From positions 1-20,343 of the forward strand of contig PFAI01000003.1 of the NCBI GenBank assembly GCA_002763225.1: DNA of 20,343 nt. Reading direction: 5' to 3'. How positions within the stretch are numbered: the stretch's first letter is position 1; each line of letters starts with the position of its first letter. This DNA comes from Candidatus Diapherotrites archaeon CG10_big_fil_rev_8_21_14_0_10_31_34 (lineage in GTDB: Archaea; Iainarchaeota; Iainarchaeia; Iainarchaeales; 1-14-0-10-31-34). The notes beneath the pieces are model-generated. The model had not been told where the DNA came from. It made no database searches and was given only the letters and a program-made list of their open reading frames with translations. A program made the position numbers and the translations under genes. Positions 4,917 to 17,775 of this stretch are shown here, piece after piece.

Positions 4917-5624
4917 TTAGAAAAACCAGCCGTACATGACTAATCTCAAAGAAAAATACCAGTAAGCAAGTGGAATAAATAAGATCCCCCAAACTATTGG
5001 ATTCCATTCCATAACTTTTTTTCCATCTAAAATCCAAAAAGGTAATAAATTAAAGCCTGCTAAAAAGAAATTAATTGAATAACCTAAATAACAAATTAAA
5101 GTAGCAACAAATTGGAAATTTGTTAATGAAGGTACAACAGTAAAAAATAAACCCAAAAAAATCAATCCTAAACTAATGTTAATTACTACTCCTGCAACAG
5201 AAATTAATCCTAGTTCATTCATTCCGTTTTTTTTGTATTCAGGATATTCTTTATCCCATCTGGTTTGTTCTTCCCAGCTTTTTTTTTGTTTTTTTGCTCC
5301 AATATAAACTGCTCCTGGTGCAGCAAAAATTGCTCCAACAAGAGCCGCAGCACCTAAAGCAAGTTTTAATCCAAAATCCCATTTTCTGAATTCAGCATGA
5401 TAATTAAAATGCCTTGCAACATTTCTATGCCCTAATTCATGTAAAATAAATGATGTTCCTAAAACAAAAAAGGAAATTGGAAGCATTATAATAAAAGTTA
5501 AAAAATTTGGAAGAAACCCCAAAGCAATTATTCCTAACAAGTTAAACCCGCTGAGCGCTAAAGCAAAAGCTATACTTAAAACAGCCCAGGATATTGCAAT
5601 ATCTTTTGTCTCTCTTGAAACCAT
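4917..5624 (-). CDS. M50 family (site-2 protease) intramembrane zinc metalloprotease
   Basis: HELGH zinc motif in a hydrophobic segment, APGAV motif, FNLLPFWILDG third-ligand motif, several TM helices. Confidence 0.93.
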   Translation of the reverse strand: MVSRETKDIAISWAVLSIAFALALSGFNLLGIIALGFLPNFLTFIIMLPISFFVLGTSFILHELGHRNVARHFNYHAEFRKWDFGLKLALGAAALVGAIFAAPGAVYIGAKKQKKSWEEQTRWDKEYPEYKKNGMNELGLISVAGVVINISLGLIFLGLFFTVVPSLTNFQFVATLICYLGYSINFFLAGFNLLPFWILDGKKVMEWNPIVWGILFIPLAYWYFSLRLVMYGWFF

Positions 5625-5702
5625 TTAAAACACAAAATTAGATTTTATAGATAACTTAACCAAGTAAAGCAATAAAACCATTTGCATTTGATTAGTTTTT
5701 TT

Positions 5703-5732
5703 CGTTGATTAACGTGAGAAATTCTTTTTATT
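5703..5732 (+). promoter_or_regulatory. Promoter of the + strand pilin operon: pseudo-palindrome CGTTGATTAACG (5703-5714), BRE-like GAAA, TATA-like TTTTTATT (5725-5732)
   Basis: Box lies at -52..-41 and TATA at -30..-23 from ATG 5755. The same layout occurs upstream of ATG 9113. Confidence 0.6.
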
Positions 5733-5754
5733 TCTTTCCAAAGCCTTTTCAGGT

Positions 5755-5922
5755 ATGGAAAATAAAGCTCAAGTGTCAGTTGAACTAATTGTATTGCTTG
5801 CAGCAGTGGTTGCAGTTGCATTAGTTCTTGTCAGCCAGCTGCAAAAAACAGGAACAAAAGGAGCAGAAGTAATAGACAAAAAAACAGAAAAAATCTTTGA
5901 TGAAATCAGTGACATTAAATGA
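5755..5922 (+). CDS. 55-aa class III signal peptide protein (minimal type IV pilin-like), absent from the ORF track
   Basis: Translated by hand: MENKA|QVSVELIVLLAAVVAVALVLVSQLQKTGTKGAEVIDKKTEKIFDEISDIK*. It has a KA|Q cleavage site, a QXSXEXXXL motif and a 20-aa hydrophobic helix. ATGA overlap with the next gene at 5919-5922. Confidence 0.9.
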   Translation: MENKAQVSVELIVLLAAVVAVALVLVSQLQKTGTKGAEVIDKKTEKIFDEISDIK

Positions 5923-6338
5923 AATCAAAAGGACAAGTGTCTTTGGAATTAATTTTAGTAATGTCAGTTTTTTTCTCTGTATTGCTTTTATTTATTCCTT
6001 TAATTTCAAAAACATTTTTTTTAGGGAGTTATGTTTTGGATGTTTCAAGAGCAAAATCTTTTTCTGATTCACTTGAAATTTCAGTAAGAGAACTGAATTC
6101 AATGAGCAAAGATTCAAAAATAACTTTAACTGCAAATCCTTTGCTTGAATGGAAAATAAAGTCAGAAGAACAACAAACAACAATAACTGTTTTACTGAAA
6201 AAATATGCTAAAGAAAAGCCTTTTACTTCAAACACATTTAATTTAATTCCTTTTTCTGAACTTGAAATAACCAAAAAAACAGTTTTTGTTTTAACTAAAA
6301 CAGATAAAGGGGTTTTAGCTGAAATTCAAAAAGCTTAA
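5919..6338 (+). CDS. Class III signal peptide protein (type IV pilin-like, 139 aa)
   Basis: MKSKG|QVSLELILVMSVFFSVLLLFIPLI, with E at +5 and a hydrophobic helix. Confidence 0.88.
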   Translation: MKSKGQVSLELILVMSVFFSVLLLFIPLISKTFFLGSYVLDVSRAKSFSDSLEISVRELNSMSKDSKITLTANPLLEWKIKSEEQQTTITVLLKKYAKEKPFTSNTFNLIPFSELEITKKTVFVLTKTDKGVLAEIQKA

Positions 6339-6362
6339 ATTTTAAAACCAAGCAATTCTATT

Positions 6363-7445
6363 ATGACAGTTTTATTAGATGGCTTTGATATTGGAAGAAT
6401 TACATTTGATTTTTTTCAAGGATCAGAAATAAATTTTTTTTCCATGCCTAGAGAAAAACCTTTTTTGAATTCTTCAAGATATTGTTTTCCTTATCCTTTT
6501 TATCCTTTTATTAATTTTGTTTTTTACCCAAAAAAATTCCTTGAAAAAAACAACATAAACTTGATTTACTCTTTCAAGGTTTTTCCTTTAAATAAACTTC
6601 CATGGATTGCAGATGTAGAAGAAATTCATTACATTAATGCTTTTTGCACCAGATTTCCAAATTCAATGAACTCTATTGGGTTAAGTTTAATTAAAAAAGG
6701 ATTAAAATCAGATTACTGCAAAAAAATAGTTTGTTTAAGTGAGTATTCAAAAAAAACAGTGGAATCATTTGGGGGAAAAAAGTTAGCCGAAAAAACAATT
6801 GTGTCTTTCCCTATATCAAAACCAGTTAAATCAAAAAACAAAAAACAAAAAGAAAAAATTTCACTGCTTTTTGTTGCAACTAACCCGAATTACAAGGGAA
6901 CAGAATTTGTTTTTTCTGCCTTTAATGAACTAACTAAAAAATATGATGTTGAATTAAACTGTTTCGGGAATTTTCCTGAAGAAACAATTAAACAGTTTCC
7001 TGAAATAAATTTTAATTTGGTTTCGTCAACTGAATTCAAAGAAAAAGTTTTGCCTAACCAAGACATTCTTTTAATGCCTTCTTTAATGGAGTCATTTGGT
7101 TTTACTGCATTACAGGCTTTATCTAATTCAATTCCAGTTATCTCTTCTGATATAATGGCTTTGCCTGAAATAAACCATGAAAACAAAACAGGTTTTTTAA
7201 TTAAATTTCCTGAATGGTATCATAAAAAACTTTTTTTTAATCCATTTCTTTTTTCCAGAGAATCAGTTAAATTAAATAAAAAAGAAATAATCAGTCAGTT
7301 AATAGAAAAAACTTCTTTGTTAATTGAAGATTCTTCTCTAAGAAAACAGTTTGGGAGAAACGGCTTAAGTGAAGTTGAAAAAGGAAAGTTTTCAGTTAAG
7401 TTCAAGCAAAAACAAATGAAAGAATTGTTTGGTGAATTAACTTAA
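6363..7445 (+). CDS. Glycosyltransferase family 4 (GT-B fold)
   Basis: LLFVA....KG motif, DILLMPSLMESFGFTALQALSNSIPVISSD, 'EINHENKTGFLI', 'LRKQFGRNG...FS'. Confidence 0.92.
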   Translation: MTVLLDGFDIGRITFDFFQGSEINFFSMPREKPFLNSSRYCFPYPFYPFINFVFYPKKFLEKNNINLIYSFKVFPLNKLPWIADVEEIHYINAFCTRFPNSMNSIGLSLIKKGLKSDYCKKIVCLSEYSKKTVESFGGKKLAEKTIVSFPISKPVKSKNKKQKEKISLLFVATNPNYKGTEFVFSAFNELTKKYDVELNCFGNFPEETIKQFPEINFNLVSSTEFKEKVLPNQDILLMPSLMESFGFTALQALSNSIPVISSDIMALPEINHENKTGFLIKFPEWYHKKLFFNPFLFSRESVKLNKKEIISQLIEKTSLLIEDSSLRKQFGRNGLSEVEKGKFSVKFKQKQMKELFGELT

Positions 7446-7801
7446 ATAAAAACTTTAACTGAAATTTCTTTTACTTGCTCTTTTTCAAAATAAAATCCAT
7501 TGGTTTTCAGTTCATTTAATCCTTTTTCTCCGTTAATTTCAATTTTTTTTTCTTTAACTATAATTTCTCCTTTTTGAAAAAGAAACATTTTTTTGAAATC
7601 TTCTTTCATTTCTTTTTCATCAAATTTTTTTGTTTTAATCCAGACTTTAATTAAATCATTTTCTTTTTGCAAAACATAAATTTTTTCTAAATCAGCTGAG
7701 TTTTTTTCAATTGGAACAGAAATAACTGCAATTAAAATCATTAAACTGATTAAAGCCTCTAAAGTGAAATTAAATCCTTTTTCTTTAATTGCATGAGACA
7801 A
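7442..7801 (-). CDS. Class III signal peptide-like (pilin-like) protein; TTG start could be 7810, 7804 or 7801
   Basis: KEKG|FNFTLEALISLMILIAVISV. GGAG at 7814-7811 upstream of the TTG codons. Overlaps the upstream gene. Its stop shares TTAA 7442-7445 with the convergent GT4 stop. Confidence 0.75.
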   Translation of the reverse strand: MSHAIKEKGFNFTLEALISLMILIAVISVPIEKNSADLEKIYVLQKENDLIKVWIKTKKFDEKEMKEDFKKMFLFQKGEIIVKEKKIEINGEKGLNELKTNGFYFEKEQVKEISVKVFI

Positions 7802-8234
7802 CAAAAACAACTCCTGTTTCTCCTGTTTGATGAATTAAAACAAATCTTCTTGCTTCAAAACAATCTGCTTTTTTTTCTCCAACAACTATCAGTTTTTCTC
7901 CTGCTGACTCAATTCTGATTTGCTTTAATTTTTCCGGAAAATTCTTTTCGTTTAATTTTTCAGCTAAACTTAAATCAATTACATTTTCTTCTATTCTTTT
8001 TTTTTCAGGGTTATAAAAAGCAATTCCTTTTTCTGGTTCCAGCTCATTACAATTTTTTATCAGCGAGTCTGCAAAAAACAAGGCTTTTGATTTCAAGTAA
8101 TTTAATTCTTTTTCTTTTTCTTCTGTTATTATCTGGTTTAATGAATTAAACATTAAATAAATCATAAATAATAAGACAAACAATGAAATCATTGTGTCTG
8201 ATTCAATTATTCCTTTACTTGTAATGTTCTTCAA
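7785..8234 (-). CDS. Class III signal peptide-like (pilin-like) protein, 149 aa
   Basis: SKG|IIESDTMISLFVLLFMIYLMF with an acidic residue at +5. Single N-terminal TM. Overlaps both neighbours. Confidence 0.75.
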   Translation of the reverse strand: MKNITSKGIIESDTMISLFVLLFMIYLMFNSLNQIITEEKEKELNYLKSKALFFADSLIKNCNELEPEKGIAFYNPEKKRIEENVIDLSLAEKLNEKNFPEKLKQIRIESAGEKLIVVGEKKADCFEARRFVLIHQTGETGVVFVVSCN

Positions 8235-8553
8235 CCCCTATTCCAATTCCTTTATTTGAATTAGTGATATTTTCTGTTAAAGTTTTTTCTTCTGCTTTTT
8301 CTTTTCCTTTAATGCTTTTTATTTTTCCTTCTTCAAAAAAACAGTTTTCTTCTAATTTGATTTCTTCCCCTGAATTAGAGTAAATTGAATCTGCAATCAA
8401 AAAACATCTTGAAACACTTGATTTGGCCGAAAAAAGTTCTTTTTTTTCTTCCATTTTTTCATTTGCGTTTGAAAGAGAATTAATTAGCAATCCAATTAAT
8501 GCAAGGTATACAAGCAAAAAAATTATTGCTTCAAAATTAATTATTCCTTTTAT
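8215..8553 (-). CDS. Class III signal peptide (pilin-like) protein; probable non-canonical ATA start at 8553 (track start is TTG 8517)
   Basis: In-frame upstream of 8517 the sequence reads ATA AAA GGA ATA ATT AAT TTT GAA GCA, giving (M)KG|IINFEAIIFLLVYLALIGLLI with E at +5. GGTGA lies 4 nt upstream of the ATA. Confidence 0.75.
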   Translation of the reverse strand: MKGIINFEAIIFLLVYLALIGLLINSLSNANEKMEEKKELFSAKSSVSRCFLIADSIYSNSGEEIKLEENCFFEEGKIKSIKGKEKAEEKTLTENITNSNKGIGIGVEEHYK

Positions 8554-9113
8554 TAAATCACCCTGAAAGCAATTAATTTTACTGTATAATTAACCGGAAT
8601 AAAGAATTTGCTTTTTGACTGGTTTTCTGTTATTTCTGCTCCAACCAGATTGTTTTTGTTTATTCCTCCGGTAAAATGAAATTCCACTAAAAAAATTTTT
8701 TCTTCTAATTTGATTACAATTGTTTTACTGTTTTCTTCAATGAATTCTTTTGTTATTTCTTTTCCTGTTATTTTAATTTTTTTGTATTCTTTGTTTGAGT
8801 TGATTTCTTTAACAAAAATTTCTTTTGCTTCTGTTTCAGAAAACACTTTAATCAGTTTTTCTGAAATTTTTTGGTTAATTTTTTTTCCTTCAGTTGAACC
8901 AAACAAAATTTCGTTTGAAATTGTTTCTTCTATAACTGAATCGACTGCATTTTCCAGTAAGTTTCTTTTAAAAGAAGTGTTTTCTATTTCAATTAATTCT
9001 GCTTCAGTTAAATTTTTCTTTGAATTAAACTCTCCGATTGAATAAACCAGATTAAAATAAATTAAAATAAAAATTAAAACCAGAACAAAACTCATTAAGC
9101 CTTTGTTTTTCAT
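8553..9113 (-). CDS. Class III signal peptide-like (pilin-like) protein, 186 aa; first gene of the - strand cluster
   Basis: MKNKG|LMSFVLVLIFILIYFNLVY (no acidic +5). Four N-X-S/T sequons: NLT, NTS, NQS, NYT. Confidence 0.72.
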   Translation of the reverse strand: MKNKGLMSFVLVLIFILIYFNLVYSIGEFNSKKNLTEAELIEIENTSFKRNLLENAVDSVIEETISNEILFGSTEGKKINQKISEKLIKVFSETEAKEIFVKEINSNKEYKKIKITGKEITKEFIEENSKTIVIKLEEKIFLVEFHFTGGINKNNLVGAEITENQSKSKFFIPVNYTVKLIAFRVI

Positions 9114-9135
9114 TCCAGAATTCTGTCTGAATTAA

Positions 9136-9165
9136 ATTAAATAGTTTTTCTAACGTTGATTGCCG
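9136..9165 (-). promoter_or_regulatory. Promoter of the - strand pilin-like operon: box CGGCAATCAACG (9165-9154), BRE-like GAAAAA, TATA TATTTAAT (9143-9136)
   Basis: Box at -52..-41 and TATA at -30..-23 from ATG 9113, the same spacing as the promoter at 5703-5732. Confidence 0.6.
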
Positions 9166-9167
9166 AA

Positions 9168-10151
9168 TTAATCTGTTTTAAACAAAGAGTCTGCAACTAA
9201 ACCAATTTTGATGTTTTTTAATTCTTTTGTCTGTAAAACTGAATTTCCGTTTATCTGGATTTCTTTTTCTGTTTTAACTGTAATTCCGTATTCTTCTGAA
9301 ATCCATGCTTTGACTTTTTGTTCATTGAAAGTGTATTCAATTATTCTTGTATTTAATCCATTAATCACTTCTTTTCCTATTTCTTTTAGTTCTGGATCAT
9401 TTAATGCCTGTTCTGTTGTTTTTTGGATTCCTGCAGGATCCTCAGTAACTGAAGGAATTGCATCTACAATAACTCCTAAACTTGTTTCTCCTTCTTTTGA
9501 ATAACTTCCATAATAAAACAGATTGTCTCCATCAAAAATCTGCACTACTTTATTTTCTTGTGTTCCTGTTTCAGTTCTGTATTTTCCGTTTTTTAAATAA
9601 TACTTTGAAGTTGTTGTATCTCCATTTGTTTGTTCAACTAAATCAAATTCAATGTTAGTTAACTCTTTTGATTTTCCCAGGATTTCCTGAATTGATTCTG
9701 TTGTTCTTTTATCTTCTTCTTTTTGTGCTCCTGAAATCAGTTCAGCATACTGGTTGTCATTAAAAGAAGTTTTTTCCGGTGCGCTCATTCCAGAGTTCAT
9801 TACTAAATTTGTTCCAAAAATAATGTAAACCAAAAATAAACAGCCTATTATTGTTGCACTCAATAAAATCATTATATTATGGCTTTCCGGTTCACTTAAT
9901 TTTTTTCCTTTTCTTGTGAGAGAATAGTATTTCCATTTTCTTCCTTCATCTTGTTGTTTAATTAAATCTGAATTAACCAGCAGTTCTAAATGCTGTTTTA
10001 TGGTTGGAGAACTCATTTTTAATTTGCTTGATAACTCGCTTAAAGTATAATTTCTTTCATTTAACAGCTTAATTATTTCTATTCTGGTGTCTGAACTCAA
10101 TGCTTTGAACTCTTCTTTCCCTATAGTTAATTCATCGGTTAATTCGGTCAT
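9168..10151 (-). CDS. Membrane-anchored ArsR-type wHTH transcriptional regulator with a C-terminal extracytoplasmic LolA/RseB-like domain
   Basis: FKALSSDTRIEIIKLL...TLSELS...TIKQHLELLVNSDLI...RKWKYYSLT (ArsR wHTH). TM IMILLSATIIGCLFLVYIIFG. Then KYYLKNGKYRTE...IFDGD...IGKEVING...KAWISEEYGITVK...LKNIKIG.VADSLF, a LolA-superfamily pattern. Confidence 0.85.
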   Translation of the reverse strand: MTELTDELTIGKEEFKALSSDTRIEIIKLLNERNYTLSELSSKLKMSSPTIKQHLELLVNSDLIKQQDEGRKWKYYSLTRKGKKLSEPESHNIMILLSATIIGCLFLVYIIFGTNLVMNSGMSAPEKTSFNDNQYAELISGAQKEEDKRTTESIQEILGKSKELTNIEFDLVEQTNGDTTTSKYYLKNGKYRTETGTQENKVVQIFDGDNLFYYGSYSKEGETSLGVIVDAIPSVTEDPAGIQKTTEQALNDPELKEIGKEVINGLNTRIIEYTFNEQKVKAWISEEYGITVKTEKEIQINGNSVLQTKELKNIKIGLVADSLFKTD

Positions 10152-10236
10152 TATTCATAAATTCGGTTTCAAGCACTTTAAATAGCTTTCATTTTGGTTA
10201 GGAAAAACATTTATTTACTTTAACTGTATGGTGTTT

Positions 10237-15881: not shown

Positions 15882-15928
15882 TAAATCCTTTCCTCAAAAA
15901 TTTCTCCAATTAAATTCTTTTTTTTCAT
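15881..15928 (-). CDS. Putative micro-ORF 1 (15 aa, MKKKNLIGEIFEERI)
   Basis: Its ATG overlaps the pheS TAA (TAATG) and its TAA overlaps the next ATG. Translation is not demonstrated. Confidence 0.45.
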   Translation of the reverse strand: MKKKNLIGEIFEERI

Positions 15929-17766
15929 TAAATTCCCTTCCTTAACCAATCCAGATTCTGTGAAAACAATTCTCTTATATCATTTAGTTTAAGCTTGAAC
16001 ATTGCTAATCTGTCCATTCCTAAACCCCAAGCCAAACACTTTTCTTTTATTCCAAGGTTTTCAGTTATTTCTGCCCTGAAAATTCCTGCACCACCGAATT
16101 CAACCCAGCCTAATTCAGGGTGTAATGCATTTAACTGAACTGATGGTTCGGTAAAAGGATAATAGTCAGGCAAAAACTTTACTTTTTCGGCTCCGGCAAT
16201 TTCTACTGCAAATTCTTTTAGCAATCCAAGCAATTTTCTTAAAGTAAAATCTTTTCCAACAACAAATCCTTCCATTTGATTGAATTCAATTAAATGAGTT
16301 GCATCAACTACATCAGGCCTAAAACAACGGGCTAAAGTAAAATATTTTCCAGGAACTTCAATTCCTTTAACCAACTGTCTTGCAGAATGAGCTGTTCCAT
16401 GAGCTGAAGGCATTAACTGTTCAGCAATTTTTTCACTCCACTCATAATTCCAGCCCATGCTTTCAGCTTTTCCCCCGTTTTCATGGGCATTTTTTATTGT
16501 TTCAACAATTTTTTTTTCAGGAAGTTTTCCATGAGTAGGCTTCTTTAATTTGTATGTGTCAGTCCAGGTTCTTGCAGGATGATTTTGTGGCTGAAACAAT
16601 ACATCAAAATTATAGAATTCCTGTACAATCAAAGGGTTTTCCATTTCTTTAAACCCTAATGAAACCAGTTTTTGTTTTATTTCATCAACAAATTTATAGT
16701 AAGGCTGTTTTTTTCCTGGATAAACTTCTTCAACCGGGTCCTGAATATTATAATTTCTTATTATTTTTGCATTCAATAAATTTTCTGAACTTCTTGTTTC
16801 TTTTATTGATTCATTTGCACTAAAACCTTTTTCTGTAATTGAAATAAATTCATTTCCTTTTTCTTTGTGTTTTAAAAATCCTTTTCTAAAACCTAAAAAC
16901 TTCAAAACTTGTTTTTCTTTTTCATTTAAGTTTTTTTCTTCTAATTCTTTTTCCCCTATTTTTTCCAGTATTAATTCTTCTTCAGTTTTTTTCTCTAAAA
17001 ACTCTTTTCCTTTTTCTGTGATTTTAACAGTTAATTCTTTTTCTTTTTTTAATTCAATTAAATCCTTTTTTTTTGCGTTTCCTAAAGCAATATTTATTTC
17101 CTGTTTTGAAATGCTTTTAATTTCTGATAAACTTTTCCAGTTTTCGTTTAACTCTTTTAAAAAGTTTTTTTCCGGCAAACCGTCTTTTACTGCTTTTAAT
17201 CCTTCAATTCCAAGTGAAACAAAAACCTGTTTTTCAATTCTTGCTTTTCCTAATTCTTTTTCATTCAGCCATTGAATTGCTCTTCTGGCTGAATCTAATT
17301 CAATTCCTGTTTTTTCGCTTAATTCCTGAACGCTTAATTCTTTTTTTTCTTCAGCTAAAACCTTTAATGTTTTTCTTTCAATTTCACTTAACTCTGAAAC
17401 AATTTTTTTTGCAGAATCATCCAAGCCAACTGCATTAATTTTCATTTCTTTTTTTCCTTCTTTAATTTCATTTTTTTTAATTTCAATTTTACTTTTTTTT
17501 TCTTGAATTCCTTCTTGAGTTTCTTTTTCCCAAACTTTTGCTTTTCCTTTTTCTAAAATCAATTCAATTTTTCCTTCTGCAGTTAATCTTATTTTCTTTA
17601 ATTCCACTAAATAATCTATTGCAGTGGAAAAAGTCTGGTACATCATTTGTTTTGGAAGCTTTTTCCATAACTCTGTTTTGCTTAATTTTTCTTTTGATTT
17701 CTTAATAGTATTTTCAACCATTGCAATAGTATCTAATCTGGGAGAATGAATGTGTTTTTTATCCAT
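15928..17766 (-). CDS. pheS: Phenylalanine--tRNA ligase alpha subunit with an extra ~107-aa N-terminal extension (wHTH-like domain plus linker)
   Basis: NFDVLFQPQNHPAR, RCFRPDVVDATHLIEFNQMEG, YYPFTEPS, WGLGMDRLAM. First ATG at 17766. An internal ATG at 17445 would give a conventional-length 505-aa protein. Confidence 0.96.
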   Translation of the reverse strand: MDKKHIHSPRLDTIAMVENTIKKSKEKLSKTELWKKLPKQMMYQTFSTAIDYLVELKKIRLTAEGKIELILEKGKAKVWEKETQEGIQEKKSKIEIKKNEIKEGKKEMKINAVGLDDSAKKIVSELSEIERKTLKVLAEEKKELSVQELSEKTGIELDSARRAIQWLNEKELGKARIEKQVFVSLGIEGLKAVKDGLPEKNFLKELNENWKSLSEIKSISKQEINIALGNAKKKDLIELKKEKELTVKITEKGKEFLEKKTEEELILEKIGEKELEEKNLNEKEKQVLKFLGFRKGFLKHKEKGNEFISITEKGFSANESIKETRSSENLLNAKIIRNYNIQDPVEEVYPGKKQPYYKFVDEIKQKLVSLGFKEMENPLIVQEFYNFDVLFQPQNHPARTWTDTYKLKKPTHGKLPEKKIVETIKNAHENGGKAESMGWNYEWSEKIAEQLMPSAHGTAHSARQLVKGIEVPGKYFTLARCFRPDVVDATHLIEFNQMEGFVVGKDFTLRKLLGLLKEFAVEIAGAEKVKFLPDYYPFTEPSVQLNALHPELGWVEFGGAGIFRAEITENLGIKEKCLAWGLGMDRLAMFKLKLNDIRELFSQNLDWLRKGI

Positions 17767-17775
17767 AAAAATCAA

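Follow-up and report, generated by a model that had tools for sequence, protein, structure and literature searches.

A conserved operator joins dispersed type IV pilus genes of Iainarchaeota in a candidate DNA-uptake regulon

In Methanococcus maripaludis, a pilus and an adjacent pair of genes, which code for an OB-fold protein with one transmembrane segment (TM) and for a TctA protein with 11 TM, are essential for transformation, as deletion and complementation have established (PMC10133366). The machinery described in strain JJ comprises the Epd pilus, a type IV filament (T4F) of system 1, together with MMJJ_13020 (the OB-fold protein) and MMJJ_13030 (the TctA-like one) (PMC10133366, PMC3875500, PMC13705601). 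In the DPANN archaea, according to a survey of 2026, the T4F genes are scattered and mostly unassignable to a system, and working structures are uncertain (PMC13705601). We have analysed a stretch of 20,343 nucleotides (nt), the window in what follows, from Candidatus Diapherotrites archaeon CG10_big_fil_rev_8_21_14_0_10_31_34, a member of the Iainarchaeota (contig PFAI01000003.1, our C34, of a genome of 1.04 Mb that is 81% complete). It carries pilin genes next to the genes of a membrane-anchored winged helix-turn-helix (wHTH) regulator and of a site-2 (M50) protease. Two pilin operons of the window share a palindromic operator, the box, which marks a regulon spread over the whole genome. With about even confidence, we assign the regulator and the minor pilins encoded in the window to a dispersed, competence-like T4F regulon of Iainarchaeota, which would serve DNA uptake.

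The likeness to M. maripaludis is at the level of families. It consists of pilins with Q at +1 and E at +5, the pattern of the substrates of M. maripaludis EppA (PMC3875500), of an ATPase and two platform genes at a separate locus, of the OB-fold and TctA pair, and of the lack of ComEC; the thermonuclease and MinD-like genes are not known to be boxed. The two systems differ in that the scattered parts of the Iainarchaeota are joined by one palindrome, whereas the portions at hand of the articles on M. maripaludis describe no common operator or regulator.

MsvR is a soluble, redox-controlled protein with a V4R sensor. Like the regulator of the window it is an ArsR-like archaeal wHTH; it acts as a dimer in methanogens and binds TTCG-N7-9-CGAA sites, also before its own gene (PMC3729527), and it differs in its lack of a membrane anchor and in its other targets. 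Membrane-bound regulators of archaeal filaments are already known as well (ArnR, PMC6396743; survey, PMC10269533), ArnR and ArnR1 of Sulfolobus acidocaldarius being likewise membrane-bound one-component wHTH proteins that control T4F genes. This comparison implies no homology: unlike the ArsR-type regulator of the window with its low-complexity loop, ArnR has another family context, other targets and a control by phosphorylation. The OB-fold/TctA requirement in methanogens is already known, as are membrane-bound filament regulators, and the operator and its regulon are real and conserved. The literature covered, with few subscription papers and no supplements (S4, S5 and S10 of PMC13705601 may list loci), holds no account of the operator, of this regulator family or of a DPANN competence regulon, and the portion at hand of PMC4858521 makes no mention of DPANN or Iainarchaeum.

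One operator before scattered pilus genes

All the genes that the original prediction placed in the window are there, in the order that it gave. CDC48 converges on the M50 gene, the latter is divergent from pilA-pilB-GT4, and these converge on pF-pE-pD-pC, downstream of the wHTH-TM gene (Table 1). The promoter box that it saw in both pilin operons stands too, as a 16-bp palindrome, TTCG-N8-CGAA, placed each time 38 nt before the ATG and conserved before pilA and before pC across the order. The upstream regions of the pC and pilA orthologues give the consensus TTCG-TYRATYRA-CGAA, immediately ahead of the B recognition element (BRE) and TATA box. A matrix of the box, built from 35 sites in 46 promoters, all outside the window's genus, recovers both promoters of the window. 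It finds 14 sites above 13 bits in the window's genome (12 outside long genes) and none in 1 Mb of Markov sequence. Of 974 genes starting with ATG in this genome, 8 have a site of at least 12 bits at 30-46 nt; 3000 column-scrambled matrices gave 0.24 such genes on average and never more than 5. Counts of the exact pattern across relatives, not separable from the reversed control in many genomes, were used only to choose loci.

Besides both pilin operons, the boxed genes of the window's genome include those of an ATPase with two TadC proteins, a lipoprotein-like protein, Yip1, a small secreted protein, a PIN protein and a DUF5678/aspartyl-protease pair. The ATPase locus (C64:2682-5984) codes for a VirB11-type enzyme (PF00437) followed by two platform proteins of the TadC family (PF00482), which is a feature of T4F system 1, as are class III pilins bearing Q+1 and E+5 and an EppA-type prepilin peptidase. 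Only this one of the six pilus ATPases of the genome is boxed, and the box precedes none of the nine other pilin-like genes checked. These six VirB11-type ATPases (on contigs C3, C9, C24, C28, C52 and C64), and many pilin clusters, are found in a genome of about 1 Mb; relatives have 3-7 pilus ATPase matches each.

The promoters of the ATPase, OB-fold and lipoprotein genes, absent from the training of the matrix, are held-out targets. A box of at least 10 bits precedes the ATPase orthologue in 18 of 30 cases (the best 30 of 61 genomes), several starts being mis-called because of N-terminal extensions, and the OB-fold gene in 19 of the 29 scored (the best 30 of 38 genomes, one unaligned); at 11 bits or more, the lipoprotein gene is boxed in 24 of 29 (the best 30 of 48, one truncated at a contig end). 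Among housekeeping control promoters the figure is 1/258. With training rows included, the box is seen before pC in 22/31 rows, plus 3/3 divergent ones, and before pilA in 19/23. Several orthologues of the boxed ATPase (L161-L190) apparently carry an N-terminal Cys-rich, ferredoxin-like extension.

Since the box precedes targets scattered over the genome, the one-locus system that had been proposed must be given up. The regulon is more informative than that model as to the targets, and the claims that went with it on proteolysis and on a sensor are weaker. The operator allows parts to be assigned, one ATPase out of six and a defined set of pilins being tied to an OB-fold/TctA module.

The distance from box to ATG belongs to lineage classes near 33, 38 and 42 nt, with a standard deviation of 2.7 nt within genomes against 5.1 nt overall (108 sites in 38 genomes, where kin are not independent). 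A fixed geometry of this kind fits an activator touching the basal machinery. Repression would be compatible too with the arrangement of the 33-nt class, where box and BRE overlap; on balance we take activation to be the probable mode of action.

In the pilin loci of genomes G037 and G053 (L102 and L116), there is no box and no TctA match, and a different element, AAAATTTTCCCTAG, stands before the TATA of the pilin operon; in a search for replacement motifs in the box-negative genomes, it was found, among the output listed, only in these two.

The probable binder of the box

The best candidate is the neighbouring membrane wHTH, and to this extent the original proposal that it regulates the pilin promoters stands. 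As far as can be judged from sequence, we consider it on the whole probable that this protein is the binder. A DNA-binding domain and a TM in one chain make it a transmembrane one-component regulator, with homologues in 50 of 60 relatives (E 1e-12 or better) and a weak match of its HTH to the NCBIfam MsvR family (6e-6). A box of at least 11 bits stands at one of the scored promoters in 41 of the 61 genomes, whereas 13 have none at two promoters or more and 7 are unscorable; the box was not seen in four (G018, G024, G042 and G058) of the five scorable genomes where no regulator was found. In a tree of 50 regulator rows, a main clade comprises 35 rows (support 93/88, not starred). Of its 34 scorable genomes, 33 are box-positive, with G025 as the sole exception; outside this clade the box is present in 7 of 14.

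More distant relatives are of particular help here. Among seven stand-alone homologues, from lineages that include Aenigmarchaeota, Woesearchaeota, Micrarchaeota and Altiarchaeales, four have a gene preceded at 41-64 nt by a perfect TTCG-N8-CGAA, against 0/258 controls, and one further homologue keeps 7 of the 8 core positions, a match of which there is one case in 258 controls. These palindromes suggest that distant homologues would autoregulate through the same core. In the Iainarchaeota the site before the regulator's own gene is a TTAGG-N6-CCTAA variant, or its right half only, about 12 nt before the TATA box, where the distant homologues have TTCGG-N6-CCGAA. Two readings offer themselves, a weak site for the regulator itself or, as both the motif and the spacing differ, the trace of a shift in its specificity. 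A hybrid TTCG/CTAA self-site exists in one relative, and TTAG half-sites also occur within ATPase boxes. An 18-bp self-site consensus is matched at 10 or more of 12 positions in 9/42 regulator promoters against 1/261 controls, a count that is partly circular because the consensus was picked by eye from the same promoters; a 16-bp self-site matrix gave no intergenic enrichment in the window's genome (16/89 matches), and no second regulon was found with it.

Several facts weigh against the membrane wHTH as binder, and they are those that speak for a different, soluble protein on the box, the membrane wHTH being then restricted to its own TTAG-type site and its adjacency simply inherited. The regulator promoter scores as a pilin box in none of 44 Iainarchaeota, its TTAG variant having another spacing. 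G025 keeps a linked regulator and has no box at five promoters and the lipoprotein; conversely, G028 (83% complete) has the box, and no regulator was found in it. In seven of the genomes with a box, the only regulator is divergent and has been relocated, and Lrp-like genes often lie nearby. Related genomes are non-independent observations. We regard such a second binder as a possibility of a doubtful kind: it has to face the canonical core that distant homologues carry before their own gene, the hybrid self-site, and the TTAG half-sites of the ATPase boxes. The regulator of G026, although relocated, may also belong with the linked ones, as its joining of the main clade is not rejected (p-AU 0.18; this test supersedes an earlier one on 11 rows, p-AU 0.0009, which did not isolate G026). 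About 20 other HTH genes of the window's genome were listed, and the comparison of binders across relatives covered a 302-residue HTH protein encoded on contig C25, rejected as it is found in only 20/61 genomes. If we keep to the membrane wHTH, a family of membrane regulators that is widespread and as yet unstudied gains a precise DNA site.

The extracellular part of the regulator had been claimed to be LolA/RseB-like, and its structure prediction bears this out. The AlphaFold2 model of the domain, based on a 116-row alignment, has a pLDDT of 89 and matches LolA (4mxt: Z 13.5, rmsd 3.1, 162 residues aligned) and RseB (2v42: Z 12.1, rmsd 3.1, 164 aligned), and Foldseek and VIA also return LolA, RseB and MucB; a single-sequence fold of the whole regulator (pLDDT 36) was useless. 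The further idea of a conserved sensor does not survive, because the fusion is rare and 34/43 regulator homologues have instead a second TM after a low-complexity loop, the other 9/43 having one TM and varied tails. The fusion was seen only in the regulator of the window, in G004 (at two overlapping contig ends) and in P0010; elsewhere the domain forms a secreted protein of its own, which has paralogues in the genus. We may take it as a recent add-on, which may tune this one lineage. A second regulator copy in G057 (L100, on C7) has a 987-residue extracellular repeat region, Ig- or cadherin-like by eye, so that the outer domain appears swappable.

A small gene coding for three TM, without a Pfam match (L017:1198-1488 and many relatives), precedes the regulator in most families and remains beside pC where the regulator has been relocated. 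It is missing at this position in the window's genus and is boxed in 0/24 cases; its product is a possible partner protein.

Pili, OB-fold proteins and the uptake of DNA

In the mechanism that we propose, a dimeric factor would bind the 16-bp palindrome TTCG-TYRATYRA-CGAA at a distance from the BRE/TATA fixed in each lineage, and would jointly switch on two pilin operons, one pilus ATPase along with the TadC platform pair that follows it, the large lipoprotein, and an OB-fold/TctA membrane module, to which both the binding and the import of DNA would fall. The OB-fold protein whose gene is boxed has a single TM, at its N-terminal end (PF01336 in 6/6 scanned), and this gene is directly followed by a 10-11-TM gene at 28 of 30 loci (PF01970, TctA, in 3/3 tested), which is the adjacent arrangement of the Methanococcus type. 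TctA matches are present in 55/60 relatives, including 5/5 of the window's genus, where the OB-fold gene was not found (0/6) and where the box stands 38-41 nt directly before TctA in the 4/4 genomes examined. ComEC was found in none of 41 genomes, ten bacterial controls being positive. As the boxed pair resembles the transformation genes of M. maripaludis, we infer by analogy that the output of the regulon would quite likely be DNA uptake, whether the DNA serves for transformation or as nourishment. The prediction is therefore one of regulated DNA uptake in the Iainarchaeota, as a means of gene transfer or as food.

This output departs from the envelope or host-contact function that had been put forward at the start, the recurring boxed targets pointing to DNA uptake. 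It is nevertheless conceivable, if rather unlikely, that we are dealing with an adhesion or host-contact pilus and its surface proteins, that is, an envelope regulon, with TctA as a solute transporter and no uptake of DNA. The targets do include the large lipoprotein, Yip1, Cys-rich secreted proteins, a subtilase and a transglutaminase-like protein; outgroup regulators adjoin genes of secreted beta-propeller, VIT/vWA and SIMPL proteins; and annotation places TctA in a tricarboxylate transporter family. The most recurrent target outside the pilus, however, is a membrane-anchored, nucleic-acid-binding OB-fold protein coupled to TctA, an arrangement genetically needed for the transformation of a methanogen. 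Furthermore, the OB/TctA operon often lies downstream of further pilin and DUF2101 genes and, in the relative G029, an A24 peptidase gene with archaeal C-terminal domains is found in the same stretch.

Against DNA uptake as output, it must be counted that neither TctA nor the OB-fold protein, nor a prepilin peptidase (PF01478), was found in the window's genome (81% complete), and that toxin-antitoxin-like and other secreted genes are among the boxed targets. The thermonuclease, another transformation gene of M. maripaludis, is patchy (13/41 genomes) and unboxed in the window's genome, and it is not supported as a member of the regulon. The TctA genes of four outgroup genomes have no box, which makes the wiring of the box to pili and TctA look specific to the order.

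The DNA-uptake reading names new candidate components, six pilins and a lipoprotein of about 1000-1400 residues. In the window's genome the lipoprotein-like protein (C26:203-3139, L122) has 978 residues, a Cys-rich N-terminus and a boxed gene, with homologues in 48/61 genomes. It has no Pfam match, and Atlas searches gave no usable name; we consider it a candidate for a new component of the pilus or of DNA uptake.

Boxed modules resembling toxin-antitoxin systems are located at C22:18651, C3:785, C14:3358, C32:14532, C45:581 and C21:38060, most with the box at 38-45 nt; they are of the PIN, DUF5678 plus aspartyl protease, and HTH-nucleotidyltransferase types, and PIN and GIY-YIG genes are boxed in G020. 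Six in-frame TAG codons interrupt the TctA match of G040 (G040:C1:491482-492654), other matches of this genome also having TAG, possibly a case of stop-codon recoding.

The M50 protease and the rest of the locus

Membrane-anchored regulators with an outer domain of the RseB/LolA fold and an M50 protease nearby recall RseA/RseB/RseP, MucA/MucB, SREBP/S2P and TcpP/TcpH-RseP. The locus differs from RseA/RseP-type pathways in that its LolA-fold domain is fused and rare, its M50 has no PDZ domain, and no site-1 protease is linked. In M50 orthologues HELGH and NLLP..LDG are invariant over 33 aligned rows (H62, E63, H66, N192, P195, D200, G201), and the profile matches MJ0392 (3b4r) and SpoIVFB; with HExxH in a TM helix and an NPDG-like third-ligand motif, this is a site-2 protease. 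A match exists in 59/60 relatives, including all ten where no regulator was found (two as fragments), and the window's genome has three M50 genes in total.

The original prediction had the regulator cleaved by this M50. With DNA uptake as output, the regulator would sit inactive in the membrane; a first cut in its loop or LolA domain, and that of the M50 in TM1, would free the wHTH to activate the regulon. The usual wHTH-TM-loop-TM hairpin is like that of SREBP, and in TM1 positions 98-100 retain small residues and position 106 Gly or Ala. Regulator and M50 are within 10 kb in 27 of the 49 relatives that have both (far apart on the same contig in 8, on different contigs in 14, some of these being assembly breaks). 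A transposon insertion in the M50 gene MMJJ_13210 of M. maripaludis was also recovered in a screen (PMC10133366, Table 1); it is a single insertion, and validation is absent from the portion of the text at hand. In the synteny survey the block as a whole proves conserved throughout the order, without any privilege for the protease and its presumed substrate. Within 8 kb of the M50 (43 loci) we find CDC48 in 40 cases, pilB 35, c6 34, c0 33, pE 32 and pC 29, and the regulator in 28, exactly as for Cdc6 (28) and topA (28), so that linkage does not exceed the background conservation of gene order. Moreover, the M50 is kept in genomes where no regulator was found, is absent from the DNA around the stand-alone regulator loci examined (0/18), and is accompanied by two further M50s in the window's genome. 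The box near it is the divergent one of pilA or pC, at a variable distance from the M50 start. A predicted complex of the M50 with the TM segment of the regulator (score 0.01, controls not folded) counts neither way. The M50 is probably an inherited neighbour; we find its cleavage of the regulator improbable, as we do the release mechanism built on it. Most likely, the regulator either acts from within the membrane or owes its turnover to some other protease.

Less probable still is the picture of an SREBP-like archaeal competence switch, in which the M50 would release the hairpin wHTH to act on a dispersed regulon for a DNA-uptake pilus and TctA translocator. Were it true, it would provide a dedicated archaeal competence regulator, whose input would be set by swappable outer domains, here the LolA/RseB fold. 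The protease link by itself, if it held, would mean that an archaeal site-2 protease has a natural substrate; a review of 2022 lists the targets of the Haloferax site-2 proteases as unknown (PMC9263693).

Table 1. Coordinates of the features of the locus (positions in the window)
Feature	Position	Strand	Remarks
Short site-2 (M50) metalloprotease	4917..5624	-	PF02163; no PDZ or CBS domain; divergent from pilA
Operator box 1	5701..5716		TTCG-N8-CG-type palindrome, 38 nt before pilA ATG, directly upstream of BRE/TATA; 16.8 bits
pilA	5755..5922	+	55-residue class III pilin, EppA-substrate type, KA/QVSVE; PF04021 1.1e-6
pilB	5919..6338	+	139-residue class III pilin, KG/QVSLE; PF04021 weak, E 0.025
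GT4 glycosyltransferase	6363..7445	+	PF00534; genus-level passenger
pF, minor pilin-like	7442..7810	-	KG/FNFTLE and N-terminal helix; start codon uncertain by a few codons
pE, minor pilin-like	7785..8234	-	KG/IIESD
pD, minor pilin-like	8215..8553	-	ATA start overlapping pC stop
pC, first of four-gene pilin-like operon	8553..9113	-	KG/LMSF, no acidic residue at +5
Operator box 2	9152..9167		38 nt before pC ATG, directly after regulator stop codon; 16.2 bits
Membrane-anchored ArsR-type wHTH regulator	9168..10151	-	wHTH ~10-88, TM ~93-111; PF01022 3.6e-11; probable box binder
Extracellular LolA/RseB-N-fold domain of regulator	9171..9719	-	residues 145-327; lineage-specific fusion replacing usual second TM
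Degenerate box, regulator's own promoter	10198..10213	-	only right half-site CCTAA kept in window

The class III signal of pilA and pilB is K[AG]/QxSxE, with Q+1 and E+5 in 20/20 rows of pilA where the site was found (23 rows in total) and in 26/27 of pilB (36 in total). The products of pC to pF deviate from it, having [KR]G and then a hydrophobic helix, with an acidic residue at +5/+6 in pD, pE and pF that is absent in pC; as they have no pilin match in Pfam, they are pilin-like by motif only. The protein encoded by pE matches NCBIfam ComGE weakly, below the cut-off (E 0.0067), and its look-alikes in the Atlas are archaeal hypothetical and DUF7287 clusters. The start of pD (8551-8553, minus strand) is ATA where relatives of the genus have ATG, and this may reflect an unusual start codon, damage to the gene or an error of assembly. 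Two neighbours were rejected as parts of the system: GT4, within 8 kb of the M50 at 4/43 loci, and EamA, present at 1/43.

Elsewhere in the window, the PheS frame (15928-17775, minus strand) has an N-terminal extension that resembles, by eye, a free-standing 94-residue wHTH-like open reading frame of G033 (L140:2124-2408). In the same genome as the window (G000), the region C36:85-5363 holds a cluster that resembles, again by eye, the bacterial MEP isoprenoid pathway (dxr, ispD, ispF, dxs).

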